64,000 nt of DNA from a virus. This document shows positions 220 to 62,294 of the stretch, piece by piece. Below the pieces are notes generated by a model, which did not search any database, was not told the origin of the DNA, and saw only the letters and a program-made list of their open reading frames with translations. The position numbers and the translations under genes are program-made. Each line of letters starts with the position of its first letter. Position 1 is the first letter of the stretch. The DNA is taken from positions 32,001 to 96,000 of the IMG/VR virus record IMGVR_UViG_3300044634_004833; one strand, written 5' to 3'.

Positions 220-507
220 GTGATGCGTAAAGCAAATGTCAGAGTTGAGGCCAGAGATCTTCCTTTTAATGCTTCTCGTGAAGAAAGAGAAAGAAATTTT
301 AAAGGTTTAATGAGTACTTTCAGACAAGCATGTAATAAGGCTGGTATTATGAAGCAAATCAAGAAGAAGGAATACTATGAATCTCCTTCTATACTTGCAA
401 GAAGAAAGAAGAGAGAAAAGGAAGCGACTATTCTTAAGTTGAAGCTGAAAGAGTTATTTCCAGAAGCTGGCAATCCTCCAAAAAGCAAAAATAGAAATAG
501 GGATTAA
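220..507 (+). CDS. rpsU: ribosomal protein bS21 (phage-encoded, extended)
   Basis: FRQACNKAGIMKQIKKKEYYESPS..RRKK matches the bS21 pattern; SD GAGGAG. Confidence 0.85.
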   Translation: MMRKANVRVEARDLPFNASREERERNFKGLMSTFRQACNKAGIMKQIKKKEYYESPSILARRKKREKEATILKLKLKELFPEAGNPPKSKNRNRD

Positions 508-508
508 A

Positions 509-778
509 ATGCCTTCAAATAAAAAATCTAAAACATTTAATGTTTATTTAGAGCAAGAGTATCAAGGCATACTAAAAGAATATGCAAAAGCATCCGGCAT
601 ATCAGTTAGTCAATTATTGAGAAATTTAATTAATAAGTATTTAAAAGTTGAATCGGGAACCAAAAAGGTAGTTCTTAATATACCTAAAGAGGTGGCTGTT
701 GATTCAGAGGAGCTTGATAAGTGGCTTACAACCAAAAAGAATGCTTTGGTAAACTATTTCAAGGGCATTTCCCCTTAG
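509..778 (+). CDS. ribbon-helix-helix (CopG-like) DNA-binding protein
   Basis: TFNVYL..LKEYAKASGISVSQLLRNLINKYL RHH pattern. Confidence 0.6.
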   Translation: MPSNKKSKTFNVYLEQEYQGILKEYAKASGISVSQLLRNLINKYLKVESGTKKVVLNIPKEVAVDSEELDKWLTTKKNALVNYFKGISP

Positions 779-1260
779 TTATAGTTTCATCTGAAAAAAT
801 ACCCAAAGCAGAAGATATTATTTCTTTTCGTGAAAACGAGATAGATTTTTATATAAAAACGGCTGTTAACATGCAGATACTTTGTTCTGTAAAAAACGGG
901 TATGGATTGTCTGCTGTTCAATGTGGAATTCCATTAAAATTGTTTGTTACAAATGATGGCACAAATCAATTTAGAACTTTTATAGATTGTGATTATGTTG
1001 GAAATGGAGAAAAGGCAGAATCTTTAGAAGGTTGCTTGAGTTTGAGATTAGGAAGCGGGTCAATTAGAAGGTTTATTGTCCCTAGATACAAAGATATTCG
1101 TGTGTCAGGATATGAAATTTTTATTAATTCAATCGATAAAAAATTTGCCAAGATAGAAGACAATTTTTCTGGAATCCCTGCCATAGTGTTGCAACATGAG
1201 ATAGATCATAATAATGGAATTTTAATAAGTGATATAGGTAAAGAAGTAGAGGTTTTTTGA
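721..1260 (+). CDS. def: peptide deformylase (start uncertain)
   Basis: motifs GYGLSAVQCG, EGCLS and QHEIDHNNG. Confidence 0.9.
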   Translation: MAYNQKECFGKLFQGHFPLVIVSSEKIPKAEDIISFRENEIDFYIKTAVNMQILCSVKNGYGLSAVQCGIPLKLFVTNDGTNQFRTFIDCDYVGNGEKAESLEGCLSLRLGSGSIRRFIVPRYKDIRVSGYEIFINSIDKKFAKIEDNFSGIPAIVLQHEIDHNNGILISDIGKEVEVF

Positions 1261-2739: not shown

Positions 2740-3115
2740 TATTTTTTTAATGTCTGTGGCAATTTTAAACGCATGGCGCACCGGCCATGTAACCAAAAAC
2801 TATAGTGCTGTTATTGCTAGCAAAGAATTCGAACTGCTGAAAACTATAGTTGTTCCCCAAAATAAATTTATAACAGAAGGTGCTTTGGCATTAAGTCTTT
2901 TTGGACACAATCTTAAATATTGTGATTCAAATATTTATATTAATTTTATACCAAATGCAAACATTGCAAGTTGTGCAAAGATGAAAGAAGTTGGCAGACT
3001 AGTTTATTATGGGGACCGTAATACAAAGGATTTAGAGGACTATTCTGATTTTTGTATTAATTTCGATTATAATTTTGGATCTATAATAGATTTATTAGCC
3101 ACCATAGATAAATAA
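2729..3115 (+). CDS. hypothetical protein, possibly a degenerate dCMP/cytidine deaminase fold
   Basis: SAVI..TEGAL..IYINFIP..SCAK..VGRLVY resembles the deaminase layout but lacks HAE and CxxC. Confidence 0.3.
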   Translation: MENDIFLMSVAILNAWRTGHVTKNYSAVIASKEFELLKTIVVPQNKFITEGALALSLFGHNLKYCDSNIYINFIPNANIASCAKMKEVGRLVYYGDRNTKDLEDYSDFCINFDYNFGSIIDLLATIDK

Positions 3116-3119
3116 TTTT

Positions 3120-3836
3120 ATGATTAATTATAATAAAAATATAGAATATGGGTGTGATGGAATACCAAACCTATGTCCAGATTTTACAATCAAGAGGCAT
3201 GATACAAGGCCTGTATTTAAGGTTGATATTACCGACTGTGACCTACCTGTTGATTTAACAGGGTTGGTTATTGAGGCAAGCATGTGGTTGAATACAAAAT
3301 TAAAAGCAGCTATAACAACATCCTCTTTGGCCATACAATTCGCAGATAACATAGGATTTGAACAAATAAATGAAAACACAATAATACAAATTGGCGATAA
3401 TAGAAAATTTGAAAGAATGTTAATTGATTATATAGATGAAGATTCTAAAACTATATATGTATTCAGGGGTCAGCTAGACACAAATAGTTATAGTTTTGCA
3501 AAAGGATCTAAAGTAAAATTATTAAGATTTATTAATGCTCCTGCTCAAGCCGAGCTGGAGTACCAAGATATTGAAAACCTTGATGGTACAATATCAAAAA
3601 ATACTTTGGTAAGAAGCACACTAATTTATGAATGGCAGCCAGATGATACTTGCTTTTGGGGTAAATACTTTTTAGAATTTAAAGTGATGGAAGTTCAATC
3701 AATAAAAACTCCTGTTGTATCAAACATACCTAATTACCATTGTAGCTTAGGTGCTGGTGTTGTCTGGGCTAGAAGATTTCCTTCTGATAGAGAAGGATTT
3801 TTAATTAACATATTTGATTCTCCAACAGCAGAATAG
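3120..3836 (+). CDS. BppU-like baseplate/structural protein
   Basis: FTIKRHDTRP..D..PVDLTGL and YEWQPDDT..GKYFLEFKV resemble BppU N-terminal domains; TAAATA 5 nt before the ATG. Confidence 0.55.
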   Translation: MINYNKNIEYGCDGIPNLCPDFTIKRHDTRPVFKVDITDCDLPVDLTGLVIEASMWLNTKLKAAITTSSLAIQFADNIGFEQINENTIIQIGDNRKFERMLIDYIDEDSKTIYVFRGQLDTNSYSFAKGSKVKLLRFINAPAQAELEYQDIENLDGTISKNTLVRSTLIYEWQPDDTCFWGKYFLEFKVMEVQSIKTPVVSNIPNYHCSLGAGVVWARRFPSDREGFLINIFDSPTAE

Positions 3837-3846: not shown

Positions 3847-4416
3847 ATGCATTTTGAAAAGAATAAGTATTTTATAAACAATAAAATTCGTGCCAATTTA
3901 GTTCGTGTTACTCATGAAAATAATCAATTAGGTGTTATGCCTATACAAGAAGCTTTGAATTATTCTTTTCAAAGAGGCTTGGATTTAATACTTATAAATT
4001 CACAAACAAATCCTCCTTTGTGCATTGTTGAAGAATTTGGTAAATTTAAGTATGAAAACAAAATAAAAGAAAAAGAAGTTAGAAAAAAGCAAAAAGAAGC
4101 TGTTGTTGTTATTAAAGAAGTAAGAATGACACCAACAATATCAGATCATGATTTACAAACCAAATTAAAGTCGGTTATTTCTTTTTTAGAATCTGGTAAA
4201 TCTGTTCAGGTACAAATACGATTTTCTCATAGAGAATTAAATCATAAAGAAATAGGTATACAAAAAATTGATATAATTATAGAGAGTACAAAAAATATTG
4301 CTTCAATTGAACAGAAGCCTTCTTTTTTTGGAAAATCATTAGTTTGCAAACTCGTGCCTCTGAGGAAAAAAAATGGAATCCAAAGAAACGACAATGTTAA
4401 ACAATCAAATACATGA
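3847..4416 (+). CDS. infC: translation initiation factor IF-3
   Basis: INNKIRA..VR, GLDLILI..PPLC..FGKFKYE, IKEVRMTPTISDHDL. Confidence 0.92.
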   Translation: MHFEKNKYFINNKIRANLVRVTHENNQLGVMPIQEALNYSFQRGLDLILINSQTNPPLCIVEEFGKFKYENKIKEKEVRKKQKEAVVVIKEVRMTPTISDHDLQTKLKSVISFLESGKSVQVQIRFSHRELNHKEIGIQKIDIIIESTKNIASIEQKPSFFGKSLVCKLVPLRKKNGIQRNDNVKQSNT

Positions 4417-6104: not shown

Positions 6105-7054
6105 ATTATTATGAGATTCTTGGCCTTGACCGCAGTTGCAGCCAAGAAGAAATAGAAAAAAATTACAGGAAGAAAGCTCTTGAGCATCATCCGGATAGAA
6201 ATCCGGGTGATGCTTCTGCACATCAAAAGTTTTTAGAAGTTCAAGAAGCTTATGATGTTTTAAAAGATAAGTCCAAAAAAATAAATTACGATAATAATTT
6301 AAATGGATTTAATGACCAGCCTATTGGCAACATGTTTGAGCAAGAAAATTTAGATATTAAAATTTCTATTACGTTTACAATTTCTGATACTATTTTTGGA
6401 AAACAAAAAAGCTTAAAGTTATCTAGAGCCAATCCATGTGATGTTTGTAGCGGAAAAGGCTACAAAACTTTTGATTTTTGCAAGCAGTGTAATGGTTCTG
6501 GTTCTGTTGTTACAATGCCCAATCCATTTTTTAATTTTAGAACTTTATGTGGCAAATGTGTAGGCAAAGGAAGAATACCAAAAGATAGTTGCAATTCTTG
6601 TTTAGGACAAAGATACAAGCAAATGCCAGAAGAAGAAATTTCTTATACCATTCCTAAAGGATTGATGGACGGCATGGGCCTGTGTTTAAAAGGCATGGGA
6701 AATTTTGGTGTTTCTGGTCATGTAGGAAATTTGTTCTTAGATTGCAGAATAGAACATGATAATAATTATAAAGTTGATAATTTGAATTTGATATCTACAA
6801 AAAAGATTAAATATAGCACTTTGGTTTTCGGAGGCAAAATAGAAGTACCAACTCCAGATGGAGATATTATAGTTGTTGATATACCAGCAAGCACAGAGTG
6901 TTTAACAAAGTTTACTGTTAAAAATAAAGGATTATATGATATTAAAGATACGAAAAAAAGAGGAGATCTCATAGTTTCAACAGTTGTTGCTTTGCCGAGC
7001 AAAGTAGAAAATGCAGAAGCATTAAAAACTATTTTAGAATTGCATGGAATTTAA
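6101..7054 (+). CDS. dnaJ: DnaJ chaperone
   Basis: J-domain with HPD, four CxxCxG zinc-finger repeats, C-terminal domain. Confidence 0.93.
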   Translation: MNYYEILGLDRSCSQEEIEKNYRKKALEHHPDRNPGDASAHQKFLEVQEAYDVLKDKSKKINYDNNLNGFNDQPIGNMFEQENLDIKISITFTISDTIFGKQKSLKLSRANPCDVCSGKGYKTFDFCKQCNGSGSVVTMPNPFFNFRTLCGKCVGKGRIPKDSCNSCLGQRYKQMPEEEISYTIPKGLMDGMGLCLKGMGNFGVSGHVGNLFLDCRIEHDNNYKVDNLNLISTKKIKYSTLVFGGKIEVPTPDGDIIVVDIPASTECLTKFTVKNKGLYDIKDTKKRGDLIVSTVVALPSKVENAEALKTILELHGI

Positions 7055-7524
7055 AAGGCAACGCCAGGACCTGGCGTATTTTTTATTTTATATTGATTTT
7101 TCAAAGCATCATCCCCTGTAAATCTAGATTTGCAGGATGATACTCTAGATGTATTTAAAGTTTTATCTTTTGGATTTCTATCAAAAGTTATTTCAATTTC
7201 TGTTAAATTTGGAATAAAAGGTTTATCTCCAGAAATTCTTTCATATTGATCTCTTGTTAAATATATTCTTGTTTTTTCTTTATCATCTAATATAACTGTT
7301 ATTGGATTTCTTTTAAAAAATAAATATTTTACTTTGGCTGTTTTTTTTATTTGCGGAACATTCATTCCATTATTTGCCATCATATCAAGACTGGGCAAAA
7401 AAGCACTGTGACCAGAAAGCGATTTGGTTTCATCTCCTTCGCTTCCTGTTTGGTCTGATGTCAGCAAGGAACCGGCACCAACAAATTCCATGAATTCCTT
7501 AAATTTAATTTCAATTTTTTCCAT
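7051..7524 (-). CDS. hypothetical protein with N-terminal KFKEFME motif (putative virion protein)
   Basis: 157-aa ORF; motif shared with other late-type genes. Confidence 0.6.
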   Translation of the reverse strand: MEKIEIKFKEFMEFVGAGSLLTSDQTGSEGDETKSLSGHSAFLPSLDMMANNGMNVPQIKKTAKVKYLFFKRNPITVILDDKEKTRIYLTRDQYERISGDKPFIPNLTEIEITFDRNPKDKTLNTSRVSSCKSRFTGDDALKNQYKIKNTPGPGVAF

Positions 7525-7538
7525 ACTATAATATATGT

Positions 7539-27981: not shown

Positions 27982-28439
27982 TCTGGCATTTTGAAGGTAT
28001 CAGGACAAGGGTCTCCCCACCTTTCTGCTTTTCTATCTACCAAATTTGGTGGCAAGCACTGCGGTTCTGATACCATGCATTTTTGTTTGTTTCTATTAGT
28101 AACTTTTATTAATTTTTCATCAGGGTCTGGCGGTAATGGTTTAAATGGCTTGACATCGCCTGGAGGCAATTTTGCTGTTGCTGCGACATATAGTTTTTTG
28201 CCATGTGGCTTTGTCCAAATTGGCACAGGCTTTAAATGATCAATTTTAAATGGTTCTTTTTCCCAGCACTTTTGTAAACGTTCGTCAGCAGATATGTAAT
28301 AAATAGCATCTGCACTACCGGGTAAAAGATATTCAGGAGGATACTGGCCTACACCTCCATATCCAAGAGGATATAAACCAGTTTTTCCACTAGTTTTTCC
28401 TTCATTAATAACTTGTAAATACTCATAGAATTTGATCAT
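27978..28439 (-). CDS. Pro-rich putative virion protein
   Basis: N-terminus MIKFYEYLQVINEG; TAAATA-N4-ATG. Confidence 0.6.
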   Translation of the reverse strand: MIKFYEYLQVINEGKTSGKTGLYPLGYGGVGQYPPEYLLPGSADAIYYISADERLQKCWEKEPFKIDHLKPVPIWTKPHGKKLYVAATAKLPPGDVKPFKPLPPDPDEKLIKVTNRNKQKCMVSEPQCLPPNLVDRKAERWGDPCPDTFKMPD

Positions 28440-28505
28440 ATTTTATTTAGAATTGAATTGAATATATTTTCAAGTTAAAATTTAATAAGGAAAGAGGATT
28501 TTAAA

Positions 28506-31132: not shown

Positions 31133-31160
31133 TTGTATTTGCTTTTGGTTTCCCTATAAT
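31133..31160 (+). promoter_or_regulatory. putative early promoter (parB)
   Basis: TTGTAT-16 nt-TATAAT with CCC before the -10 box. Confidence 0.55.
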
Positions 31161-32571: not shown

Positions 32572-32850
32572 ATGATATGCTTTTGTCCTTATTGTGGCAA
32601 GCCATTGCCAAAGCCTCTAAATAATGGTGTTTCGTTCTGCACCAATTGCACAAGAACTATAGTTTCTACCAAACAAAACGAACTTCTTTCCAGCTATAGG
32701 ATATTAATAAGCAGAGTCTATACCAACGAAGATCAATTAAAGGCTGCTTTAAAAATAAATGCAGAAGATTATGCTTTTATAAAATCGTTTGCAGACGACG
32801 GTCTGAGTGTTGATGAATTTACAAAGCATCTTAAGACTAAAATTGCTTAA
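32572..32850 (+). CDS. zinc-ribbon protein
   Basis: FCPYCG..FCTNC. Confidence 0.6.
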   Translation: MICFCPYCGKPLPKPLNNGVSFCTNCTRTIVSTKQNELLSSYRILISRVYTNEDQLKAALKINAEDYAFIKSFADDGLSVDEFTKHLKTKIA

Positions 32851-33040
32851 AAAATTCTTTTACATCTTTGTTAGATCTTTGAATTAATTCAGTTCTAGTA
32901 ATTTTATATTCGTTTTCTGCTTCGATTCCAACTCGAACTTTATAGTTGTCATCAATTCGACATACAGTTATTTTTATTAATTTGCCATCTGGGCAACTAA
33001 TTGTAATGCTTTCATCTTGTTTTCTGGTTAAAACTAACAT
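32837..33040 (-). CDS. csrA: carbon storage regulator CsrA
   Basis: MLVLTRKQDESITI..KVRVGIEA..ITRTEL; SD AAGGAG; upstream TTGATT-17-TACAAT on the minus strand. Confidence 0.88.
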   Translation of the reverse strand: MLVLTRKQDESITISCPDGKLIKITVCRIDDNYKVRVGIEAENEYKITRTELIQRSNKDVKEFFKQF

Positions 33041-33109
33041 GCAAACTCCTTTTTTAATTTTCCCTATTAAAATTGTAGACTATTAAAATTTCAAAATCAA
33101 ATTTTTTGG

Positions 33110-37922: not shown

Positions 37923-38039
37923 TTAGGGATAAAAATCAAAGAAAGGGGGCTGCGATAAAAATTTTCTAATTGCTAGTGGCCATCGCAAGGATTTGCGTGT
38001 TAACCATAATTCCGCCAGATTTAATAAGGAGGTGTCAAT

Positions 38040-40716: not shown

Positions 40717-40845
40717 ATGAATGAGCAAGATCAAAGTCATCTCGAATACTTGACAGCAATTATATTTTTTATTATTCCTGTTGGTCTTTTAATGAACTCA
40801 ATAGTTCTTAAATTTTGTTTGTGGATTCTAAATTTGCATTCGTAA
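40717..40845 (+). CDS. 42-aa small membrane protein (not in track)
   Basis: MNEQDQSHLEYLTAIIFFIIPVGLLMNSIVLKFCLWILNLHS. Confidence 0.4.
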   Translation: MNEQDQSHLEYLTAIIFFIIPVGLLMNSIVLKFCLWILNLHS

Positions 40846-40855
40846 ATACATCAAG

Positions 40856-41254
40856 GTGATAAAAATGATTAGTTTAAATGAATACAAAGAAGTGGGAAGT
40901 TTTTCAGGTCTTGTTTCTAAGTTTTTTGAAGCGAGAGATTTCGCTCATAGAGTTCATTTGTTGGCGAAAAATAAATCATACGCTGAACATAAAGCATTAG
41001 GATCTTTTTACGAAGATTTAATTGGTTTGGTAGACAACCTATATGAGACTCATGCAGGACAGTATGGCCCAGCCAAATTTGATTTTAATAAGATTCCCGA
41101 TGGAGATGCCACAGAATATCTTGAGTCTTTGGGAAAAATATGTGTAGCTGGCCATTCTTCTATTGATAAAAAAGATACCCATCTACACAATATTTTAGAT
41201 GAAATTACAGCTTTGGTTTATCACACATTGTATAAGTTAAAAAATTTGAAATAA
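40856..41254 (+). CDS. ferritin-like phage protein (DUF5856-like)
   Basis: H..H..SYAEHKALG.FYE.L..L.D...E...GQYG..NILDEI..TLYKL. Confidence 0.7.
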   Translation: MIKMISLNEYKEVGSFSGLVSKFFEARDFAHRVHLLAKNKSYAEHKALGSFYEDLIGLVDNLYETHAGQYGPAKFDFNKIPDGDATEYLESLGKICVAGHSSIDKKDTHLHNILDEITALVYHTLYKLKNLK

Positions 41255-41527: not shown

Positions 41528-41794
41528 TTAACGCATTTCTGCTGTCAACCAGTTGTAAACTTCTTCAACATCATCTTTTGATGTCGCAATATGATCATTT
41601 GCCCAATCATGGCCATTTTGAAGCATTTTATCTACTTTTTCAGGATCAAGTGATAACATGTGGTCAACTCTGTCTTTAATAGTTTTTAAATTGTTGAAAA
41701 ACATGTAGTGTTGAACATCATGATCTTTTTCATAATCATGACTTTCTTTGAGTAGTCCTGCCAATATTAGTAGTTCTTTATTTTCTTTTTGCAT
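41528..41794 (-). CDS. conserved phage hypothetical protein
   Basis: YMFF.NL..GHDWANDHIATSKDD; TATAAATA upstream. Confidence 0.65.
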   Translation of the reverse strand: MQKENKELLILAGLLKESHDYEKDHDVQHYMFFNNLKTIKDRVDHMLSLDPEKVDKMLQNGHDWANDHIATSKDDVEEVYNWLTAEMR

Positions 41795-41826
41795 AAATCC
41801 CCCTGAAAATATTTATAATCTGGCGG

Positions 41827-41854
41827 TTGTTTTTGAAATAGTAGCCCCTATAAT
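41827..41854 (+). promoter_or_regulatory. putative early promoter
   Basis: TTGTTT-16 nt-TATAAT with CCCC before the -10 box. Confidence 0.6.
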
Positions 41855-42871: not shown

Positions 42872-43552
42872 TCAACTGGTATGAAACCAAATTGAGAAGG
42901 TCACATGTTCTTTAGCAAGATATGTGACCTTTAATAATTTGTATAGTTCGTCAGCCAAAAGCACTCCTGCTTTATAATCGGAAGGATAGTGTAGTCCAGC
43001 AAGAATTCTATTCTTTCCCATGCTCTTGCCAAGTTCACTCAATTCGGGTTTTTTCTCTGGAAACATATGGCCCAAAACTTTGGCTGCTAATGCGCCAAAT
43101 GTAGCATGACCGCTTGGGTAAGATGCTGTACTAGCTGTTTTTGATGGGAATATTTTAAATTGCTCCCCCATTTTAGATGCCAAAAAGGCTGGTCTGGGTC
43201 TGTCATATTTCTTTTTGTAGTGCTTTACCGCAATTTCTGTATCCATTTCTAGCAGATAGATGAACTTTTCTAAAGTGGGATCGTCAATTTTTAAGGCATC
43301 ATAAAAAATCGTATTTAGTCTAGGCCAGTATCCATCTTGTTCTTTTATTTCTTTTTTCTGTTTGGTTGTTAATGATTTGAAAGACTTCTCAATCAGCTTT
43401 AGTTCTTCAAAAGTTTCTTTTGAATCGTTAGCAGGAGGATCTGGCAATTTAATTTTATCCCAAGAATCTTCAAATATTTGAATTTTCTTTTTTGGAACAT
43501 CGTAATAATCACGATGTTTCATATCTGAATCTTTTAGATTTTTAATATCCAT
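42872..43552 (-). CDS. PAP2 / class A acid phosphatase (vanadium haloperoxidase-like fold)
   Basis: K....RPRP, SYPSGH, RILAGLHYPSD. Confidence 0.88.
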   Translation of the reverse strand: MDIKNLKDSDMKHRDYYDVPKKKIQIFEDSWDKIKLPDPPANDSKETFEELKLIEKSFKSLTTKQKKEIKEQDGYWPRLNTIFYDALKIDDPTLEKFIYLLEMDTEIAVKHYKKKYDRPRPAFLASKMGEQFKIFPSKTASTASYPSGHATFGALAAKVLGHMFPEKKPELSELGKSMGKNRILAGLHYPSDYKAGVLLADELYKLLKVTYLAKEHVTFSIWFHTS

Positions 43553-43555
43553 GCA

Positions 43556-44569
43556 TTATTTATTAGTGTGATTAATAATTGCATCAACATCTTCTATTTT
43601 TGATTCAATAATGTGTGCATGTGATAGATTTAAATTTTTGTAAAAGTCACGATACCTCATCAAGTCATACTTGGCTTCAAGGGCCAATTTGATTACGGTG
43701 GGACTTGGTTTTCTTGGCCGTTTGCTAAGTACAAGTTTTATTAATTTGGGGGTGTAATTATCATGATTGCTGATATTACCCAAATAAGTCCTTATTACAT
43801 AGGCAAGCCCTGAATATCCTTTGTCTATGATGTATTCCAAGCAAAATACAGAATAATTACGGGTAAACACCTCGGCCATTGTTTGAAGGTTATGTGGATT
43901 GATTTTATTGAAAATCATAGTCTGCAAGAAGTCAATGACTTTTTGCTGGCAAATATTTGAGCCAAAAATTGTAGTATTAAATACTATTGGATCAATCTTT
44001 TTATCTGTATAAAGGAAATATTTTAATGCCTTAAGCTTTTCTTCATCAGTATAAGCAGAATTGTGGACAATCAAATGTAAAACACTAATATCAATTGGCA
44101 AGTGTGGTCTATTCTGAGGCCAGCAATAAAATGATAGAAGTATGTCTATTACATACATAGTATCATTTTTTTCTATTTTGCCTTCATCTAGAAAGCTCAT
44201 GAAGTGGTAAATTATTTCTGTGTCCAATTTATTAAGATTTTTATATTTAATTGCATAGTATGCACCATCTTCGGTATCGAGTAATTCGTTAAATCTTTCT
44301 GTGCTTTCCTTGCAAGTTTCTAGTAGCAATTTTATAGCTTGTTCCAAGTAATCATCAGGATAAGATTCATCATGCAAATCTTGATAATTGCAAAATTTAA
44401 TAAAGTCTTTTCTGCTTTTTATGTCAAAATATTTGAAAGAAGAATCGTTAAGCATAAGATGCAAGGCATTTACTACTTTTCCTTCATTTACATTTTCTGT
44501 AAAAGATAGATACATAAAAGATTTAGTAGCGTATATTTCTGGACTGATTGTAGTATTTGCTGGGCACAT
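43556..44569 (-). CDS. hypothetical helical protein
   Basis: 337-aa ORF. Confidence 0.6.
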   Translation of the reverse strand: MCPANTTISPEIYATKSFMYLSFTENVNEGKVVNALHLMLNDSSFKYFDIKSRKDFIKFCNYQDLHDESYPDDYLEQAIKLLLETCKESTERFNELLDTEDGAYYAIKYKNLNKLDTEIIYHFMSFLDEGKIEKNDTMYVIDILLSFYCWPQNRPHLPIDISVLHLIVHNSAYTDEEKLKALKYFLYTDKKIDPIVFNTTIFGSNICQQKVIDFLQTMIFNKINPHNLQTMAEVFTRNYSVFCLEYIIDKGYSGLAYVIRTYLGNISNHDNYTPKLIKLVLSKRPRKPSPTVIKLALEAKYDLMRYRDFYKNLNLSHAHIIESKIEDVDAIINHTNK

Positions 44570-50655: not shown

Positions 50656-51450
50656 TTACCTTCTTTTATTTTTTTCGCATAAATCTTTAAAGTATAAAAC
50701 ACATTTCATTGTATCTTCTAAAACATTCCATTTAAAATGTGTTTTATATTGATTGTAATATACTGTAAAATCATTATTGTTTAAACAAGTAACTAATAGT
50801 CCGCATTCATTTCTTATATAACTCGCAGAAGCTATTTGCCAACAACTTCGTGAGTCTCCATAAAAATCATAAAAATTTGCTATCTTATCCATGTTTTCAC
50901 TAGTTGCAAACCAAAGCACATCTTCAACTCTGGATGGCCCGTAGCATTCTGCATGGGCTCCATATACAAAAGTTTTTTCATCTACTTGACTTAAATCATC
51001 TTTTAAAGATTTAGAACTTGAAAATATTAAATCTGGTCGCATTCTTACAACATAATCGTATTTAAAGTTATTGTCTCTTTCATAATCTTTTTTAAAACTA
51101 TTTACATAGTAGCCAGATTCAAACATTGCAACTACATTTTTATTTAATTGTTTGTTAAACCTTAAGCCGCCTTGTATGTTTTGAATTTGCGTATTATTAA
51201 ATTCTTCTATGACTATTCTTTTGGGGTTATAAATTTCTCTAAAATCGTGAATTGTAGATTGAGAAATGGGGTATTGAGTAAAAGTTTGTCTTTCGCTTGG
51301 CAATCCTATATTATGACTTACTGTATCTATGTCCCATGTGTGGACAAAGAAATCACAGTTCTCTTTAAGATATCCTATATATTCTAAAATATTTTTAGAA
51401 CAGTCTACTCCATCTCGTATTTGTCCATTGAAGCAAATTGCAATTTTCAT
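50656..51450 (-). CDS. putative glycosyltransferase-like protein (paralog A1)
   Basis: MKIAICFNGQIR..DFFVHTW..YDYVVRMRPD; TATAAATA-N4-ATG. Confidence 0.65.
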   Translation of the reverse strand: MKIAICFNGQIRDGVDCSKNILEYIGYLKENCDFFVHTWDIDTVSHNIGLPSERQTFTQYPISQSTIHDFREIYNPKRIVIEEFNNTQIQNIQGGLRFNKQLNKNVVAMFESGYYVNSFKKDYERDNNFKYDYVVRMRPDLIFSSSKSLKDDLSQVDEKTFVYGAHAECYGPSRVEDVLWFATSENMDKIANFYDFYGDSRSCWQIASASYIRNECGLLVTCLNNNDFTVYYNQYKTHFKWNVLEDTMKCVLYFKDLCEKNKRR

Positions 51451-51511
51451 GAATTATTTATAAAATATACTGACTATTTTAATAATATTAACTACTAAAA
51501 AGAAAAAAATT

Positions 51512-52303: not shown

Positions 52304-53837
52304 ACAATTCTAAAAATCCTTTTAAAAATAAATATTGTCCAAATTTTTCTGGATGTAATGGCGACATATTTAAATAAGATAAAGCTGCTATTGTTTTTAC
52401 ATGAGAAAGATCATAGTTTTTAATAATCCATGATTCATATAATTCTAAAAACTTTGAATTATTTTTTGTTTGAAAAACTTTTAAAATGTATTTGTTTTCT
52501 TCGTTTGAGAAAGGATCTGATTCTTCGTTTGCAAGACTAAAGTTTACGTTTGTTCCAGCATAAAGTTTTGCTAAATCATAATAGCTATCGCCTAACAAGG
52601 CTCCTTCAAAATCGCTTCTCCAATCTATTAATTTGAATGAATTATTTTTTGTATAAATTACATTTCCAAAATTTAAATCTCCATGAAATATAGAACAGAT
52701 ACCCATATCAGAAATTTTTTCCCAATTTATGTTTTCTAATATAGTATAAATATTGCTTACGTTAATGTTATCAATAATAATATTGTTTTTATAATTTAAA
52801 TTTTTATTAATATAATCTTTTACTCTTTTAAAAGTTTTTTCCTTGTAAAAGGAAAGGCAATTTTTTTTAAAATTATCATATTTTGGTTCTGTTTTATTAA
52901 AAAGATTTTTTTCTAGCCATAATAAAAACTTTTCAAATACTTCAATATTGTCAACCTCATAGAGTGTTTTTCCTTCTATAAAGTTATGGCAAATTAAATT
53001 TTCACAATCTGAATTTATAGAAGATTCTATTAGATTTGATAGCATTTCTGCTCTTTGTTTTTTTAGTTTTATTTTTTCTGGCAGATTTATTTTAGCTACT
53101 TTGTTATTAACTTTGTATGTAAACTCATCTATATCTATTTTTTTAAGTTCATAATGAGCCATTCCTTTTGTTTTTTTATTTAATTCTTCATATAAGCTTT
53201 TTCTTCCAACATCAATCCATGATATTTCTTTTGCAAAAATATCAGCAAAAAAAGGTTTGTAAAAAACCACAACATTTTCTACTTCTTTTTCTCCTTTGCT
53301 TCTTTTATGACTTTCAAATTTTTCCCAGAATTTATCATAATCTTTTATAGCTGCTATTCCAGTATAAGCATATTCATAACTATCTTTTGATTTGTTTTTA
53401 AAATCAACAAGTTTGCCATTTTCAACTTTGCAAGTAGAATAATTTTCCAAGTCATCAACTTTTGAAATACCAATCCAGTTTTGGTCAATGGCTGGCAAAG
53501 TTTTGCCAATAAAAGAATCTGCTGTTGCAATATAGAAAGGACATTGAAGTTCGTTTTTGCAACAATACATGCTATAGCCAGGCCCAGAACCTGGCTTGTC
53601 ATAATTATCAACTATAACAAATTTTATTTTTTTATCCGGATGCAAAGTCTTGCAGTAATCAACTATTTGTTCTGACTTGTATCCTAGAGCTAATACAATT
53701 TCATCAACATCACAGTTTTCTATTACATGGCTTATTACTGCTTTTCCGCCAATAGGAAGCAAGCCTTTGTTTATTTGATTTGTGTAAGATTCCATTCTGG
53801 ATCCTACTCCAGCAGCTAGAATAAGTAGTTTTTTCAT
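52278..53837 (-). CDS. sugar nucleotidyltransferase fused to an APH/choline-kinase-like domain
   Basis: ILAAGVGSRM..NKGLLP; C-terminal FHGDLNFGN..LIDWR..YDLAK; TAAATA-N4-ATG. Confidence 0.85.
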   Translation of the reverse strand: MKKLLILAAGVGSRMESYTNQINKGLLPIGGKAVISHVIENCDVDEIVLALGYKSEQIVDYCKTLHPDKKIKFVIVDNYDKPGSGPGYSMYCCKNELQCPFYIATADSFIGKTLPAIDQNWIGISKVDDLENYSTCKVENGKLVDFKNKSKDSYEYAYTGIAAIKDYDKFWEKFESHKRSKGEKEVENVVVFYKPFFADIFAKEISWIDVGRKSLYEELNKKTKGMAHYELKKIDIDEFTYKVNNKVAKINLPEKIKLKKQRAEMLSNLIESSINSDCENLICHNFIEGKTLYEVDNIEVFEKFLLWLEKNLFNKTEPKYDNFKKNCLSFYKEKTFKRVKDYINKNLNYKNNIIIDNINVSNIYTILENINWEKISDMGICSIFHGDLNFGNVIYTKNNSFKLIDWRSDFEGALLGDSYYDLAKLYAGTNVNFSLANEESDPFSNEENKYILKVFQTKNNSKFLELYESWIIKNYDLSHVKTIAALSYLNMSPLHPEKFGQYLFLKGFLELFKVTHDTF

Positions 53838-53853
53838 AACGTATTTATTATGA

Positions 53854-54960: not shown

Positions 54961-54969
54961 TTTTCACCA

Positions 54970-55560: not shown

Positions 55561-55573
55561 TTTTTTCCTTGAC

Positions 55574-56191: not shown

Positions 56192-56238
56192 TTTATTAAA
56201 TTCTTTTCTTTTTTAAACTAGTAATTATTATTATATTT

Positions 56239-57348
56239 TTGATGATTATTTTATACAACATACACTTGAAGCCAAATAGAACTGTATTTTACGAAAGACC
56301 AAACTTAAGGTCTGATGATAGAATAGATATTTTTAAATATTCTATTGCAACTCATGCAGTTACAGATCCTTTGGTTTCTAAATTTTTGTTCTTTATATCT
56401 ATAGATCCAGAATGGGAAAACAGAAAAGAAGAAATTGAAAAATTTATTTACAACAACCATGATGAAGAAAAAGTAAAAATTGAATGGAAAGCCAAGGAAA
56501 CATTAGAAGAATGGCAAAATTTAAGTTACGAACTCGATAAAATTGATGATAAAACAATTTATTTTTTGTCAAATGAAGACCATATTTTTATTGATTATGA
56601 TTTGGAAGCTTTGTTTTATACCATTAAAGAAGTGGAAAATGATCCGAATCCTTTTTCAGCCATGTTTTATTCCCATTGGCCCGAATTAATAAGAGTTGCA
56701 AAAAGACTCGGTGGCAACTTAAGTTCTTCTGGATATTCTGTTAATTTCGACTGGTCTGTACACGATTCTATAAGATTGATTAGAAAAGAACTCTGGAGAA
56801 AATATTGGTTCGATTGGGATTTTAGAGATTTGCCTCCTTCTACAAATATATCGAGCATTAAAAAGTTTTTACCAGATGGATTTAATGTAAGCTGTCATGT
56901 TCCAACGAGAGAAATTTGCAGACATTATGACGGATATTCGCATGTTGGCAATCTTTTTAATTATTATCCACCTCTTGAAATACCAAAAGGATTTTTAAGT
57001 AAAAATATGACAGTTCGTTATGGATGGAATGATATTTGGACTCATGATAATTTTTCAAATATTAATCCATTGATGCCAAATATGAAAACTGTAGATCCTA
57101 GATGTGGAGTAGATTATAAACTTACCCTTGACAAACTACCAATGTCATGGTGGGGAAGAATATCTGATATTAATGAAAATCCTCATATGAATGAAGAAGA
57201 AATGGCTGTTGGATACAAAAATTGGCTTTATGATTCTCTAAAAGTTCCTATAGGAGCTTATTGTATGCATTTTAATGAAAATGATTTTCCACCAATAGAA
57301 TGGATTGAAAAACATATAAAACAAGTAAAAATGCTAAGAACCTTTTAA
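56239..57348 (+). CDS. putative glycosyltransferase-like protein (paralog B2)
   Basis: SNEDHIF.DY, SHWPE, PTREICRHYDGYSHVG. Confidence 0.55.
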   Translation: MMIILYNIHLKPNRTVFYERPNLRSDDRIDIFKYSIATHAVTDPLVSKFLFFISIDPEWENRKEEIEKFIYNNHDEEKVKIEWKAKETLEEWQNLSYELDKIDDKTIYFLSNEDHIFIDYDLEALFYTIKEVENDPNPFSAMFYSHWPELIRVAKRLGGNLSSSGYSVNFDWSVHDSIRLIRKELWRKYWFDWDFRDLPPSTNISSIKKFLPDGFNVSCHVPTREICRHYDGYSHVGNLFNYYPPLEIPKGFLSKNMTVRYGWNDIWTHDNFSNINPLMPNMKTVDPRCGVDYKLTLDKLPMSWWGRISDINENPHMNEEEMAVGYKNWLYDSLKVPIGAYCMHFNENDFPPIEWIEKHIKQVKMLRTF

Positions 57349-57355
57349 ATATAAT

Positions 57356-57949
57356 ATGTTTGACTTAGTAATTGCAAAATATAAAGAAGATATATCATGG
57401 GCAGAACAACTGAATTTTAGAAAATTTATTTATAATAAAAATGATGAGCCTTTTCCCAATTCTATAAAACTTAAAAATATTGGAAGAGAAGCACATACAT
57501 GGGCTTATCATATAGTAAAAAATTATAACAATATTGATGAATATACAATATTCGTACAAGGAGACCCTTTTTACCATTTTGAAAATTTTATGGAAATTGC
57601 AAAAAGATTACCAGAGTCTTTAGATCAACTTAATAAAGTTGATGATGGATTGTATAGTCTTGCTGATATTAATCAACCAGAAGATTTAGATTTTTTAAAA
57701 AATAGAAACGTTCATCCAGATAAAGTTTTAAAATTAATTTCTTCAAAAGAACAAAATAAAACTTTGTTTCCATTTGCTTGGGGAGCCCAACATATTGTAC
57801 ATCGTAATAATATTCTTTGCAAGTCTATTAATTTTTGGCAGAAACTAGTTGAAATACATGATACTGCAATTCATTGGCCTTGGAGTATCGAAAGATGTTG
57901 GTTTGATATTTTTGGTTCTAAAACTTTTAATAATAAATTATTTTTTTAA
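57356..57949 (+). CDS. DUF3431-like protein
   Basis: VIAKYKED.SW, NIGREAHT..HI, FVQGDPF.H; TAAATA-N4-ATG. Confidence 0.75.
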   Translation: MFDLVIAKYKEDISWAEQLNFRKFIYNKNDEPFPNSIKLKNIGREAHTWAYHIVKNYNNIDEYTIFVQGDPFYHFENFMEIAKRLPESLDQLNKVDDGLYSLADINQPEDLDFLKNRNVHPDKVLKLISSKEQNKTLFPFAWGAQHIVHRNNILCKSINFWQKLVEIHDTAIHWPWSIERCWFDIFGSKTFNNKLFF

Positions 57950-57992
57950 CTTCAAAAATTTTTATATTTATTTGTTTTTTAATAAATAAAGC

Positions 57993-58517
57993 ATGAAAAC
58001 TTTTAGTGAATATTACAAAGATTCTGGCCTAGGGAAATGGTTGGACGAAAAGTGGGTTGACATTAGCAGAAAAGACAAAAGTGGCAAACATCCACCTTGT
58101 GGGGCTTCTGCTAAAAAAGGAACAAGAAAAAAAGGCCAAAAGAAAGCATATCCTAAATGCAGGCCCGCTGCAAAAGCAGCCGCTATGAGCGATGATCTTA
58201 AAAAGAAAGCAACTCAACAAAAAAGAAGAGCCGAAGGAAAAAATAAGCACAAAAAAGGCAGGAAACCAGTCGTTGTATCTCATAAGAATTTGAAAGAGGA
58301 TGTTATGTTAAATGAGGGGAAAAAAAATAAACCTAACAATCCTAAATTATGGAGTAGAGCGCAGGCTTGGGCGAGAAAAAAGTTTGATGTACATCCTAGT
58401 GCCTATAGTAATTTAGCTGCAAGCAAGTGGTACAAGGAACGTGGCGGCACATGGAGAAGCACAAACGAATCTTATTTGCCAACATTCAAGGAATGGTTAG
58501 ATATTAATGCACTTTAA
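57993..58517 (+). CDS. basic phage protein (DUF5872-like), putative virion protein
   Basis: GLGKW.DEKWVD..PCG..YPKCRP and PSAY..KWYK..GG.W; N-terminus MKTFSEYY; TAAATA-N4-ATG. Confidence 0.65.
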   Translation: MKTFSEYYKDSGLGKWLDEKWVDISRKDKSGKHPPCGASAKKGTRKKGQKKAYPKCRPAAKAAAMSDDLKKKATQQKRRAEGKNKHKKGRKPVVVSHKNLKEDVMLNEGKKNKPNNPKLWSRAQAWARKKFDVHPSAYSNLAASKWYKERGGTWRSTNESYLPTFKEWLDINAL

Positions 58518-61308
58518 ACAATTTATTTTATTATCAGAATCTTTAAACAAAGAAATTGAAGATTTTTTACTAAATGTCAAGAATATTGACAAAGTTGAGA
58601 TGCGCAAATTTATTGATGAATTAAAGGCATCTCCTGAAGAAATTGATAAAAAAGCAGCCTTTGCCAAGATGCAGGAAAAGTTTGGTTTTGCCAAAAAGAA
58701 AAATTTGCCAGACCCACCGAAAAATCCTGCCTTGCAATCTTATTACGATAATTTAGTTGATGGCAAAATAACAATCCCAGAGTATAAGATTGCTGCTCAT
58801 TATCAAAATGCTGCTGGATTAAGTGAAATAATGAGTTCTTTAAGAAGACTTGTGAATCAAGGAATTGTAAATTTACAATACAAAGATGGGCCTGAAATTA
58901 TATACGGAGATGAATCACTTAGAGATTTTGCAGATTCTACAAAGTTTGCTGCTTCTATTCATAAAATAGAATCACAAGCTGGGCTGGCAAAAAAAGAAAT
59001 AAAAGGTGGAACTGCAGATCCATATCTGTTGCAAATAAGCAACGAAGCAGACCAAGTGTGGCCTCCTGCTGGCACAAAAGATAATCCTAGCAACATTTAT
59101 GTGTTCAAAGCTGGATTTGATCCGCAAAAATGCAGATTGATGGGCAAAGGACAAGTTTGGTGCATCTCTAGCTCTCATTTCAAAAAATGGACTATGGCAT
59201 ATAGAATAAACAGAGGTCAAGTTCAATACTTTATTTTTGATTTAAACAAAGACAAAGATGATCCAACACGTTATGTAAATGCAGGTGTTGCAGAATCAGA
59301 AGAGGCAGAAGATGAAGATTATGATACATCTACACTCATGGGAGGCGAATGGGTTGATGCCAGAAATCATCCAGATGAAATAGAAGGTTATTCAAGCGTT
59401 GAAGAGTATGAAAGGTATTTGGCCAGCAAAGGAGTTCCTGTTGAAAAAGTTTTTGTGCCAGAACCACTAAGTGATGATGAAAAAAAATTAAAAACATATT
59501 TAAAACAACAAAACTGGAAGGAAGCCAAAGCTTTAAGCACGGAGCTTTGGGAAGCCTACATATTGTTATCAGATAGACTGCCAGATGAAGCTTACAATAC
59601 GCTTTCTGAAGAACAAAAAACAACTTTTAGACATGGTAAATTACAAACTTTAACTACAAAGCAAATAAGCGATGCTGTTGGTGAAAGGAAAAATAATAAG
59701 AGGAATTTCAAAGAATGGGTAAAAAGCTTATTATTGTACGATATGACAGTCGAGGATATGCTGGGACTAGTTCCCGAAAATGAACAATATGAATTTATGG
59801 ACGAATTTTTAGGATCTGTTCAAGATGGAACTCTTACCAAATTACTTTCACATGGATTAAGAACTATTAATAATAAACAATTTTCAGATTTGCTTATAAA
59901 GCATAGTGAAAAATTTGACAACTCAGCTTATATTGACATGCTTATTTCTAAAGGAATAACAGAGTTTTCTCCAGAAAATATAAAAGTAATTGAAAATATG
60001 CCAGAATATAATTTTGGCAATAGCATGCTTAGTCTTATGCCTGATAAAGGCGGGGATGAAAATTCTGAGACGATGTTTTGGAGTTTGGTTGAAAACCATG
60101 CTGATGTTGTGGCCAAAAAGCTTTCTAAAAACAAAATTTTGTATTCAAATATTTTGAACCTTTTTGGTGATTATAAAATGTTCACAAAGTTTTTTAATGC
60201 AATAAATCCAGAGATTATGAAATATTTGGGTGGCAAGATAGAATCTTCTCTAGATTGGATGTCTCATTCTGACTTGAAAAATTTGCTTAATAAAAGTAAT
60301 AGCGATATCGTAAAATTTATTTACGATAATACAAATGAATATACTCATAGGAAATTATCTCCATTTTTTGACGAAGGAAATAACGATACAGCTAAATTGT
60401 CTCATCTAAAACATGCTAAATATAACTTTGAAAATGGCGAATTATTAAATGGGATTTTAAATTCCAAAAACCCTTTGAGTTTTATATCTGACATAGGTGT
60501 TGAAAAGTTTAGAAAACTTCTATGGTATCCCGAATTCATTGTGAAGGCTATTGAAGTTTTGAATAGAACAAGATCAATTTCACAAAATGATATTTATGAT
60601 TTGATATCCACTGAAACTTTAGACAATTTAGGCTATGAAGACATAAAAAATCTTTTGAAAAAACTACATTTTGATCAAATGTCAGAGTCCAAACTTGTAG
60701 ATTACCTGTTGCAAAGATTAATTGGAATGGAAGTATCTGGAGGAAAGAAAATAGAGTCTAGCAAAGAGGATAGAATCGCTGAATTATTAAATTCTATTCA
60801 TAGTCTGGATAATTCTCTATCTGTTTCAAAATTGCAAAAGCTAAAGAATATGGCTGGCGACAGTGTGTGGAATAATATAAAGCCACAAGCTGTGGCAGAA
60901 TTTTTGCTTAGATTGCCGGAACTACGTTTAAACGAATCAACTATAAATGAAATAGCAAATTTGTTTAATTTGCAATCTTTGGAATCTTTGCCAGTTTCCA
61001 TTTTGGTGAAACTGCTTGATAAGCTTCCAAATTTAAATTACACCAATGGATTTTACCAAGCTATAAAAAATGATCTTGGTTCGTACATGAGATACATGCC
61101 ACCCTTTGTTGTGCTTCTTCTTGATAAAGCAAAAGGCAAAATAGTTTTATCGCCAGCAGAAATTGCCGATTTGATAAACAAAAAGGAATTTACTGCTGTT
61201 GAGACAATAAAAAGGCTGGGCAAGGAACGAATGACCCCGCAGGTTGTTGCGCTTTTGAAGCCAAAAATCAGGGATTATTATCAAAGCGATATGCTTCCGA
61301 GGATGTAG
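58507..61308 (+). CDS. large hypothetical protein, putative head-packaged
   Basis: N-terminus MHFKQFILLSES; internal WCIS..YR..YFIFD domain; helical C-terminus. Confidence 0.65.
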   Translation: MHFKQFILLSESLNKEIEDFLLNVKNIDKVEMRKFIDELKASPEEIDKKAAFAKMQEKFGFAKKKNLPDPPKNPALQSYYDNLVDGKITIPEYKIAAHYQNAAGLSEIMSSLRRLVNQGIVNLQYKDGPEIIYGDESLRDFADSTKFAASIHKIESQAGLAKKEIKGGTADPYLLQISNEADQVWPPAGTKDNPSNIYVFKAGFDPQKCRLMGKGQVWCISSSHFKKWTMAYRINRGQVQYFIFDLNKDKDDPTRYVNAGVAESEEAEDEDYDTSTLMGGEWVDARNHPDEIEGYSSVEEYERYLASKGVPVEKVFVPEPLSDDEKKLKTYLKQQNWKEAKALSTELWEAYILLSDRLPDEAYNTLSEEQKTTFRHGKLQTLTTKQISDAVGERKNNKRNFKEWVKSLLLYDMTVEDMLGLVPENEQYEFMDEFLGSVQDGTLTKLLSHGLRTINNKQFSDLLIKHSEKFDNSAYIDMLISKGITEFSPENIKVIENMPEYNFGNSMLSLMPDKGGDENSETMFWSLVENHADVVAKKLSKNKILYSNILNLFGDYKMFTKFFNAINPEIMKYLGGKIESSLDWMSHSDLKNLLNKSNSDIVKFIYDNTNEYTHRKLSPFFDEGNNDTAKLSHLKHAKYNFENGELLNGILNSKNPLSFISDIGVEKFRKLLWYPEFIVKAIEVLNRTRSISQNDIYDLISTETLDNLGYEDIKNLLKKLHFDQMSESKLVDYLLQRLIGMEVSGGKKIESSKEDRIAELLNSIHSLDNSLSVSKLQKLKNMAGDSVWNNIKPQAVAEFLLRLPELRLNESTINEIANLFNLQSLESLPVSILVKLLDKLPNLNYTNGFYQAIKNDLGSYMRYMPPFVVLLLDKAKGKIVLSPAEIADLINKKEFTAVETIKRLGKERMTPQVVALLKPKIRDYYQSDMLPRM

Positions 61309-61359
61309 TTTCGTCAACCACCCCCTATAATTTAAATAAAATCAAGGAGGACAACAATC

Positions 61360-61881
61360 ATGAAATTTAAAATTACGATCTTTTTGACGGCTATGCCTTT
61401 TATACTTTTTATTCTGCAAAGTCAGACACAGTTTTCAAAAATTAATGATAAAAACATAAAGTTGGAAAATGAAGTAGCAGTATTAAAAAGCGAATTAAAT
61501 AATCTTCAAGAAACAACGATTGTCAAAATGTTTCAATCCGCAGAAGAAGCAAAAAAGAAAGCTTTGGATATGCTTGACCAGAATATTCAAATTTATAAAA
61601 AAAATGAAGAGTTTAGAATAAAACTATTAAAAGAGTTGGCTGAAGCTTCTGATACTGCCAACAAATATGTTGAAGCCTATGCCAAAAATATTGATTTGGG
61701 AGAATATGGCAAAATGGAACTGATTGCTACTGCTTCTCCAAAAAAGAGGAAACAATTAGAATCGGCTATTGAAAATACTATTAGGCATACAACAGAAGAA
61801 CAAAGAGAGAAGGATATTGAATTGAAGAAACATTTGTATGAAGCTAAAAAAGCATTGCATAATATTAAGAATAATTTTTAG
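61360..61881 (+). CDS. membrane-anchored/secreted coiled-coil protein
   Basis: hydrophobic N-terminus; CCCCC-TATAAT (61321-61331) and SD AAGGAGG. Confidence 0.6.
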   Translation: MKFKITIFLTAMPFILFILQSQTQFSKINDKNIKLENEVAVLKSELNNLQETTIVKMFQSAEEAKKKALDMLDQNIQIYKKNEEFRIKLLKELAEASDTANKYVEAYAKNIDLGEYGKMELIATASPKKRKQLESAIENTIRHTTEEQREKDIELKKHLYEAKKALHNIKNNF

Positions 61882-62294
61882 TCTTCTTCTTCTCCTTCAA
61901 GATCTTCTAATTCCAAATGTGAGTCCTCTATTTCACCACAGAAAACACCAAATTTACTAGATAGATGCCCAACTACTTCGATAGGAACTCTGCTGAAAAA
62001 CAATCCTTGGTTTTGATTATTGCATTTATGCTTTTTCAATTCTTTTTTGCCAATCTTAACAAGATGGTAGTCTTTGTCTAACAATCTATCTAAAATGTTT
62101 AAAAATATTATTGGATTGCCATCTACAAATATGGGCTCAAGACTTTTATTTTCTTCATCAAAACAACAATATGCATACTTGTCATCAAGGTATTCAAAAG
62201 TAATAAATTTTATTTTTTCATCAAGACATTCTAAAATTTGTTTAAACCAAGATTTTTCATGCTGCACAAGTGGAATAAGTTTTAGTTTTTCCAT
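61878..62294 (-). CDS. hypothetical protein
   Basis: TAAATA-N5-ATG. Confidence 0.55.
   Translation of the reverse strand: MEKLKLIPLVQHEKSWFKQILECLDEKIKFITFEYLDDKYAYCCFDEENKSLEPIFVDGNPIIFLNILDRLLDKDYHLVKIGKKELKKHKCNNQNQGLFFSRVPIEVVGHLSSKFGVFCGEIEDSHLELEDLEGEEED

Follow-up and report, generated by a model that had tools for sequence, protein, structure and literature searches.

At the late promoters of phage T4, the sigma factor gp55 acts together with gp33 and the gp45 clamp. These promoters carry TATAAATA from −13 to −6, its first T being weak, those of phage Aeh1 carry CTAAATA from −12, and both are read by gp55 (PMC1524935). For the Thermus phage phiYS40, a review reports that middle and late mRNAs are leaderless, and that initiation factor 2 (IF2) is raised and initiation factor 3 (IF3) lowered (PMC3594737). 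In T4, the endoribonuclease RegB inactivates early mRNAs led by a Shine-Dalgarno sequence (SD) by cutting GGAG within SDs (PMC3014915). In the present study we describe the hexamer TAAATA directly before start codons in IMG/VR virus record IMGVR_UViG_3300044634_004833. The window, a stretch of 64,000 nucleotides (nt), comprises bases 32001-96000 of this 154,941-bp contig, which is 31% complete according to CheckV. An earlier note on the window had proposed a translational switch from SD-led early genes to leaderless late genes, effected by translation factors that the phage encodes.

Two relatives are used for comparison. The closer one, L027, is ~73% identical and was recovered from a different lake metagenome. 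In GenBank the nearest record is LR756511.1, the curated 595,163-bp sequence of a huge phage found in vernal-pool mud, which has a G+C content (GC) of 42% and originates from Al-Shayeb et al. 2020 (PMC7162821). Between this phage and the contig there are 45 reciprocal best hits (median identity 40%) and long synteny.

TAAATA directly before start codons

Gene calling on the whole contig gave 201 genes, and hexamers were ranked by their position upstream of the 201 called starts. TAAATA at a spacer of 2-7 nt was the top-ranked hexamer, ahead of the SD hexamers, with 19 occurrences against 1.1 expected (p~3e-17). Ten genes have a spacer of four nt (N4), four have N5, three N6 and two N7, after which the histogram is nearly empty until 13-22 nt. 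As a control, the final 30 nt of every upstream region were shuffled 300 times with dinucleotides preserved, which placed TAAATA at N4-N7 in 2.3±1.5 genes (maximum 7), compared to the 19 found. The position 4-5 nt before ATG that the earlier note had remarked on is thus real and not a matter of chance, and the spacer extends to N7. When all TAAATA-N4-ATG sites of the contig are considered, 10 of 13 are called gene starts, as against 0 of 4 sites at N2, 0 of 6 at N8 and none at N3.

The TAAATA-near genes start with ATG in 17 of 19 cases, and the base at −1 is a pyrimidine in the same proportion (17/19), compared to 58% of SD-led genes (p=0.013, contig). In a position profile of the genes without SD, information is confined to A-T-A-A-A-T-A at −11 to −5, and there is no −35 element. 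Eight of the 19 near sites lie in divergent gaps of 17-86 nt, and 14 are either at least 13 nt from a same-strand neighbour or in a divergent gap. Approximately five overlap the stop codon (TAA) of a closely preceding same-strand gene, an explanation that does not extend to the rest. The sites in the window, where genes are named by their coordinates, include the following.

3109..3122, plus strand: TAAATA-N5-ATG of gene 3120-3836, overlapping the stop codon of the previous gene
28437..28449, minus strand: TAAATA-N4-ATG of gene 27978-28439, in a 66-nt divergent intergenic region
43550..43562, minus strand: TAAATA-N4-ATG of the PAP2 phosphatase gene 42872-43552
51448..51460, minus strand: TAAATA-N4-ATG of gene 50656-51450, followed by the SD-led sugar-isomerase-like gene 50099-50653
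53835..53847, minus strand: TAAATA-N4-ATG of the nucleotidyltransferase/kinase-like gene 52278-53837 (519 amino acids, aa)
57346..57358, plus strand: TAAATA-N4-ATG of the DUF3431 gene 57356-57949
57983..57995, plus strand: TAAATA-N4-ATG of the DUF5872 gene 57993-58517, followed by an SD-led gene of 933 aa
62292..62305, minus strand: TAAATA-N5-ATG of gene 61878-62294, in a 17-nt divergent gap

A second group of genes has TAAATA 13-22 nt upstream of the start, with an SD in between, so that in this bimodal spacing an SD is present only where there is room for it. Two examples from the window are given here.

41792..41815, minus strand: TAAATA-N15-ATG of gene 41528-41794, with the SD GGGGG
40843..40867, plus strand: TAAATA-N16-ATG of a DUF5856 gene whose true start is 40865, with the SD AAGGTG

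The DUF5856 gene had been called from 40856. Comparison with L027 places its start at the ATG at 40865, behind the SD AAGGTG, and its TAAATA site therefore belongs to the short-leader group, which leaves ~18 of the 19 called near starts. The SD score by promoter class, a check suggested along with the proposed switch, separates the classes: the median SD pairing energy is +0.8 kcal/mol for TAAATA-near genes against −8.2 kcal/mol for genes behind CCYATAAT or CTGCGATAA, the two other promoter types treated below (p=3.5e-6), and −5.9 kcal/mol where TAAATA lies further upstream.

The arrangement is conserved in both relatives. In the L027 orthologues of 27978, 42872 and 41528 (all minus strand), TAAATA and its distance are kept while spacer letters or SD are altered: the 4-nt spacer of 27978 differs, and in 41528 the 15-nt spacing remains while the SD becomes AGGAG. 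LR756511 shows the same spacer peak (N4, 16; N5, 9; N6, 6; N7, 3), amounting to 34 genes against 5.3±2.2 in shuffles, and a pyrimidine at −1 in 26 of these 34 compared to 45% of its SD-led genes (p=5e-4). Its motif is CTAAATA or ATAAATA amid surroundings of normal GC. The LR756511 orthologue of gene 3120 has TATATA-N5-ATG. In LR756502, another huge phage, TAAATA-N2-ATG occurs 41 times against 23 in a reversed control, counted without gene calls, and may represent a related arrangement with different spacing.

LR756511 also encodes matches to the gp55 family (phrog_234; E-values 7e-8 for a protein of 186 aa and 2e-5 for one of 124 aa), although the specificity of this profile is moderate, as it was positive in 8 of 14 bacterial genomes used as a control. 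Its capsid is of T4 Gp23 type (290 bits), its portal is that of T4 (249 bits), and a gene resembling the T4 gp13 head-tail adaptor carries TAAATA-N5. On account of these matches the clade appears distantly T4-like in head and late transcription. The LR756511 capsid gene has TAAATA 33 nt upstream and a weak SD in its leader, and the structural genes around it mostly carry strong SDs. Another late-sigma family, phrog_12791, had no match in the contig or LR756511.

Promoter classes and readings of the motif

We favour, with moderate confidence, the reading that a gp55-class promoter has been fused to start codons, giving leaderless first genes. The phage would then use three promoter types: a sigma-70-like type, TTGTWT-N13-CCC-TATAAT; a bipartite type, CTGCGATAA-N14-YTAG; and (A/C)TAAATA without a −35 element, which equals the T4-family late-promoter core and would be read by a gp55-type phage sigma factor. 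Genes behind the first two types have leaders of 16-130 nt and strong SDs. The third type usually lies 4-7 nt before an ATG preceded by a pyrimidine, and transcription from these near sites would start on the AUG or within 3 nt of it. Since the motif stands only 4-7 nt before the start codon, the TAAATA-near genes are probably leaderless, and the pyrimidine-A step kept at the ATG argues that this A is the transcription start. Translation of the first gene in such a unit would proceed on a leaderless mRNA, and 70S ribosomes would probably carry it out. In approximately one third of cases the motif lies 13-22 nt upstream with a normal SD in the short leader, and genes further down the units use ordinary SDs. 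Of the late leaderless class that had been postulated for this window, the distinct promoter and leader types are supported short of proof, as is the lack of room for a leader or an SD; that the class is late is plausible rather than proven.

The other promoters and the sigma-like genes of the window are listed here.

31133..31160, plus strand: TTGTAT-N16-TATAAT with CCC before the −10, upstream of the SD-led ParB-like gene 31203; CCC-TTATAAT is kept in L027
33110..33137, plus strand: TTGTTT-N16-TAATAT with CCCC before the −10, upstream of the SD-led gene 33169
41827..41854, plus strand: TTGTTT-N16-TATAAT with CCCC before the −10, upstream of the signal-peptide gene 41932
61324..61362, plus strand: CCCCC-TATAAT promoter with a 28-nt leader and the SD AAGGAGG, gene 61360
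37950..37978, plus strand: CTGCGATAA-N14-CTAGTG, upstream of the sigma-like gene 38040; kept in L027
35215..36123, plus strand: phage sigma-70-family factor with regions 2 and 4 (PF04542, PF04545, phrog_351); orthologues in L027 and LR756511
38040..38864, plus strand: sigma-like orphan protein whose gene has the contig's strongest SD (AAGGAGGTG); Sigma70_r2 match of 22.8 bits, slightly below the cut-off
7525..7538, both strands: 14-nt divergent intergenic region with TATAAT-N6-ATG (plus) and TATATT-N5-ATG (minus), the boxes overlapping each other

TTGTWT-N16-TAWWAT occurs four times in the window against 0.86 expected, and the three copies preceding 31203, 33169 and 41932 end in CCC-TATAAT or CCCC-TAATAT. 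Upstream of gene 61360, CCCCCTATAAT is combined with AAGGAGG. The SD-led genes 31203, 33169, 41932 and 61360 do lie behind TTGTWT or CCC-TATAAT promoters, as had been noted before; gene 38040, then counted with them, is instead preceded by CTGCGATAA-N14-CTAGTG. A generic scan with the sigma-70 consensus was uninformative in such AT-rich DNA (59 sites against 45 expected). The gene at 41932-42342, which has the CCCC-TATAAT promoter upstream, is GC-rich against the 31% background and encodes an Ala/Val-rich secreted protein with a signal peptide.

CTGCGATAA-N14-YTAG(T/G)G has 15 plus-strand copies in the contig, most of them followed by strong SDs, and probably represents a third promoter class. 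The copies are mostly found in an array before SD-led small genes at the right end of the contig (~141,900-154,300). No TAAATA-N4-7 site was seen in this array by coordinate reading without a formal test, which fits separate temporal classes.

The protein encoded by 38040 is a candidate phage sigma factor. Its only homologues, four in number, are all in related phages, and it has a weak collinear match to the gp55-like protein of LR756511. The AlphaFold2 model has a mean predicted local distance difference test score (pLDDT) of 64.5, with the sigma region 2 part below 60; sigma factors head the Foldseek list, with no hit at E<=0.001. No match was obtained by tblastn against phages, by BLASTP against T4 gp55 or by phmmer against PDB sequences. 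Because the model is weak, no Foldseek hit is significant and these sequence searches are empty, we call the protein sigma-like only.

Divergent gene pairs 14-17 nt apart (7525-7538 in the window and 6430-6446 in the contig) have −10-like boxes that overlap one another as well as the start codon of the facing gene, implying that both genes of such a pair are leaderless. At 32520-32571 of the window a terminator-like hairpin (GACTGAGAGAAACTTTCTCTCAGTC) is directly followed by TATATA-N6-ATG of gene 32572; hairpin and box are both kept in L027, with compensatory changes in the stem.

Several points weigh against a late promoter fused to the ATG. The start site and timing of the TAAATA genes are deduced from sequence, as are the promoter function of the motif and the identity of the sigma factor that would read it. 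In the T4 register, with the last A at −6, N5 puts +1 on the A of the ATG and N4 puts it on the U; N4 is the commonest spacer, yet this register would start its RNA at U, and a register one base shorter must therefore be assumed. The gp55 family (phrog_234) has no match in the 155-kb contig, which represents an estimated 31% of the genome, and the sigma-like gene 38040 of the window resembles sigma factors weakly. Most TAAATA-headed genes have functions that are unassigned or sugar-related, and are not classic late genes. Moreover, the ~5 near sites that overlap the stop of a close same-strand gene allow those genes to be read from longer transcripts as well.

Longer transcripts are central to another, unlikely reading, in which TAAATA-N4-ATG is a signal in the mRNA, namely an A/U-rich, SD-independent element for ribosome loading or re-initiation. 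A/U-rich sequence before starts helps initiation, and several sites, 3-16 nt behind a gene on the same strand, share bases with its stop codon. Such an element would, however, hardly account for the same heptamer 13-22 nt (contig) and 33 nt (LR756511 capsid) upstream of genes with an ordinary SD in between, nor for the eight sites in divergent gaps, which at 17-86 nt require any promoter to be near. The pyrimidine at −1 is in keeping with the way RNA polymerase selects a start site, and the motif is an exact match to a known promoter core (PMC1524935).

Alternatively, TAAATA could be a −10 element read by the host sigma factor, and the leaderless genes would be constitutive or early instead of late. 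TATAAT, TATATT, TATATA and TAAAAT also sit 4-8 nt before some ATGs, phiYS40 uses TAAAAT with the host polymerase, and the lack of a gp55 match in the contig points in the same direction. We nevertheless regard this as distinctly unlikely: TAAATA does not have the T that sigma-70 needs at the last position, yet it is far commoner at these sites than the canonical hexamers, and LR756511 encodes gp55-family proteins along with T4-type head genes.

If the start sites proposed for the gp55-class promoter are confirmed, T4-type late promoters would be producing leaderless mRNAs throughout a clade of huge phages from the environment, and about one gene in ten would be affected. The rule (A/C)TAAATA-N4-7-ATG with a pyrimidine at −1 improves the annotation of start codons and promoters, as illustrated by the 10 gene starts among 13 N4 sites.

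Translation-factor genes and the proposed switch

The window encodes the ribosomal protein bS21, peptide deformylase, IF3 and CsrA, as had been proposed before, and all four were confirmed by Pfam.

220..507, plus strand: bS21 homologue (PF01165, 37.3 bits against a cut-off of 27), with the SD GAGGAG
509..778, plus strand: ribbon-helix-helix (RHH; CopG-like) protein (PF01402, 24 bits)
721..1260, plus strand: peptide deformylase (PF01327, 67 bits), exact start uncertain
3847..4416, plus strand: IF3 with both domains (PF05198, 70 bits, positions 1-69 of 70; PF00707, 86 bits, positions 1-85 of 86)
32837..33040, minus strand: CsrA homologue of 67 aa (PF02599, 57.6 bits)
33046..33100, minus strand: CsrA promoter and leader, TTGATT-N17-TACAAT, ~20 nt, AAGGAG

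The bS21, RHH and deformylase genes are adjacent, IF3 follows 2.6 kb further on the same strand, and a bidirectional terminator at 7061-7077 closes the run. Ten nt separate the IF3 gene from the preceding TAAATA-headed gene 3120-3836. In LR756511 these genes recur in unchanged order, together with CsrA, with identities of 36% for the syntenic bS21 homologue (27 bits), 35% for the RHH protein (reciprocal best hit, in the same position between bS21 and deformylase), 44% for deformylase, 39% for IF3 and 58% for CsrA, which also has an orthologue in L027. The translated deformylase shows the three metal-site motifs GLSAVQCG, EGCLS and QHEIDH. The five proteins are a conserved accessory set of this phage clade, in which the RHH protein could be a regulator of the bS21-deformylase module. 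IF3, S21 with extensions and deformylase have already been reported in huge phages, and the main text of Al-Shayeb et al. 2020 makes no mention of CsrA or leaderless mRNAs (PMC7162821). A gene set of this kind is thus already known, and the conserved order bS21-RHH-deformylase is described here.

The CsrA promoter is of the classical sigma-70 type, and for this reason is probably read by the host polymerase. Its −35, spacing, −10 (TAYAAT) and SD are all kept in L027. Having a conserved host-type promoter, CsrA could be made early, and a regulatory role, perhaps an early one, could be envisaged for it. Homologues of csrA are known from other phages, with a role not yet defined; one matters for plaque size (PMC11879866).

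The phage bS21 is extended at its N terminus and ends in a basic tail. In Bacteroidia, the type of bS21 that hides the anti-SD has Tyr54, 12 residues past the KPS/T motif, and its C-terminal tail is weakly basic (PMC7797042). Following SPS, the phage protein reads ILARRKKREKEA, with alanine at the Bacteroidia signature position, and its tail is strongly basic (13 K/R against 5 D/E). The protein thus does not qualify as a Bacteroidia-type sequesterer of the anti-SD, the activity of Bacteroidia bS21 to which the earlier note had referred.

According to the switch proposed in that note, phage CsrA, bS21 and IF3 would together repress SD-dependent initiation on mRNAs of the host and on early mRNAs of the phage, and ribosomes would be shifted to the leaderless late ones. 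All four genes are present, with synteny kept in both phages that show the motif. The host-type promoter would permit early CsrA synthesis, promoter-proximal genes of the two other promoter classes all carry SDs containing GGA, and the effect of a csrA homologue on plaque size in another phage would be in line with such a role. We nevertheless consider the switch very unlikely. TAAATA genes share transcription units with SD-led ones: downstream of 3120, and ahead of the terminator, come IF3, 4373, 5296, 5730 and 6101, while 58507 comes after 57993, and 50099 after 50656 (both minus strand). The structural module of LR756511 is mostly SD-led, so that a global shut-off of SDs would hit late genes. 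Strong SDs precede ~40% of the genes of the phage itself, and the host therefore very probably reads SDs. IF3 also points the wrong way: an increase in IF3 inhibits the translation of leaderless mRNAs in E. coli, both in vitro and in vivo (PMC9031893), the factor is reported to be lowered by phiYS40 (PMC3594737), and its gene lies directly behind a TAAATA gene, which is hard to fit. The phage bS21 has neither the Tyr54 signature nor the weakly basic tail. Finally, phiYS40 has leaderless genes yet no bS21, IF3 or CsrA, and LR756502 has bS21 yet no enrichment of the N4 motif. Co-occurrence of the factor genes with TAAATA-N4-ATG, another suggested check, was found among six phages only in the contig and LR756511; as these are relatives, it counts as a single observation.

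A broader version, which we likewise regard as very doubtful, is that the clade moved its late promoters onto start codons, and that the bS21-deformylase-IF3 module and CsrA retune initiation to balance leaderless and SD-led messages in time. If true, the virus itself would encode a programme that acts on which class of mRNA the ribosome selects. As the same phage supplies two mRNA classes along with IF3, bS21 and CsrA, it offers a clean test of factor action. The view that the TAAATA sites are a chance product of an AT-rich genome and its TAA stop codons is practically untenable and was rejected. A GC of 31% would by base composition give an estimated ~500 TAAATA on both contig strands, but shuffles that keep local composition fall far short (2.3±1.5 against 19), the peak persists at 42% GC, and 14 sites are at least 13 nt from a same-strand neighbour or in a divergent gap.

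Genomic context and comparison with known systems

Near-identical DNA is found in many lake and freshwater metagenomes; all 20 of 20 runs matching window bases 50001-60000 are DNA, from lake or freshwater metagenomes. The window has a GC of ~31% and no tRNA genes were found in it. PHROG and Pfam scans identified a split DnaE polymerase, a PrkA/SpoVR-type operon, ClpX, giant proteins with RCC1 repeats and two sigma-like genes, while many genes have no assigned function. Megablast of 20 kb against GenBank phages gave no match, and IF3 as a single query found no relative among viral contigs. BLASTP with the structural proteins of phiYS40 returned nothing in the contig or LR756511, and the Pfam tail sheath PF04984 had no match. 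For LR756511, the table of Al-Shayeb et al. gives 82% unknown and 4% Proteobacteria (PMC7162821).

RCC1-like repeats (phrog_7220) occur in three giant proteins of 1024, 3159 and 1418 aa (window 10340-22946 and contig 119306-123562), and the gene of the 1418-aa protein is preceded by TAAATA at 16-20 nt and by an SD. The phage genome also contains a transposase (phrog_506) and a free-standing HNH endonuclease (window 26031-27251 and 29468-30121). Contig 16020-21359 carries a PrkA-like kinase, a SpoVR-like gene and neighbours that phiYS40 and LR756511 have as well; this operon is conserved in large phages, with PrkA identities of 31% to phiYS40 and 67% to LR756511.

Compared to T4-family late promoters, the phage described here has the identical core, (A/C)TAAATA, and likewise no −35 element, and its relative LR756511 has gp55-family genes, a T4-type capsid and portal and a gp13-like adaptor. 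The spacing is different. In the late region of T4, a stretch of 12-35 nt (mode 27-28) that holds an SD separates the motif from the ATG, whereas the mode here is 4 nt, with no room for a leader, and the T4 genome contains no TAAATA-N4-ATG.

In spacing the phage resembles phiYS40, which served as a positive control and in the same analysis showed a peak of the −10 hexamer TAAAAT 6-7 nt before ATGs. Since the control behaves alike, the architecture seen here is the one expected for leaderless genes. Both phages are large and low in GC (32.6% in phiYS40), have SD-led and leaderless-type gene classes, −10 elements abutting ATGs and the PrkA-SpoVR-type operon. In contrast, phiYS40 uses a canonical TANNNT box and encodes no bS21, IF3 or CsrA; and while it is reported to lower IF3, the phage described here adds an IF3 gene.

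RegB of T4 is a proven phage mechanism with an outcome of the kind that the proposed switch would have. It is, however, a nuclease and not an RNA-binding repressor, and the late mRNAs of T4 still use SDs.

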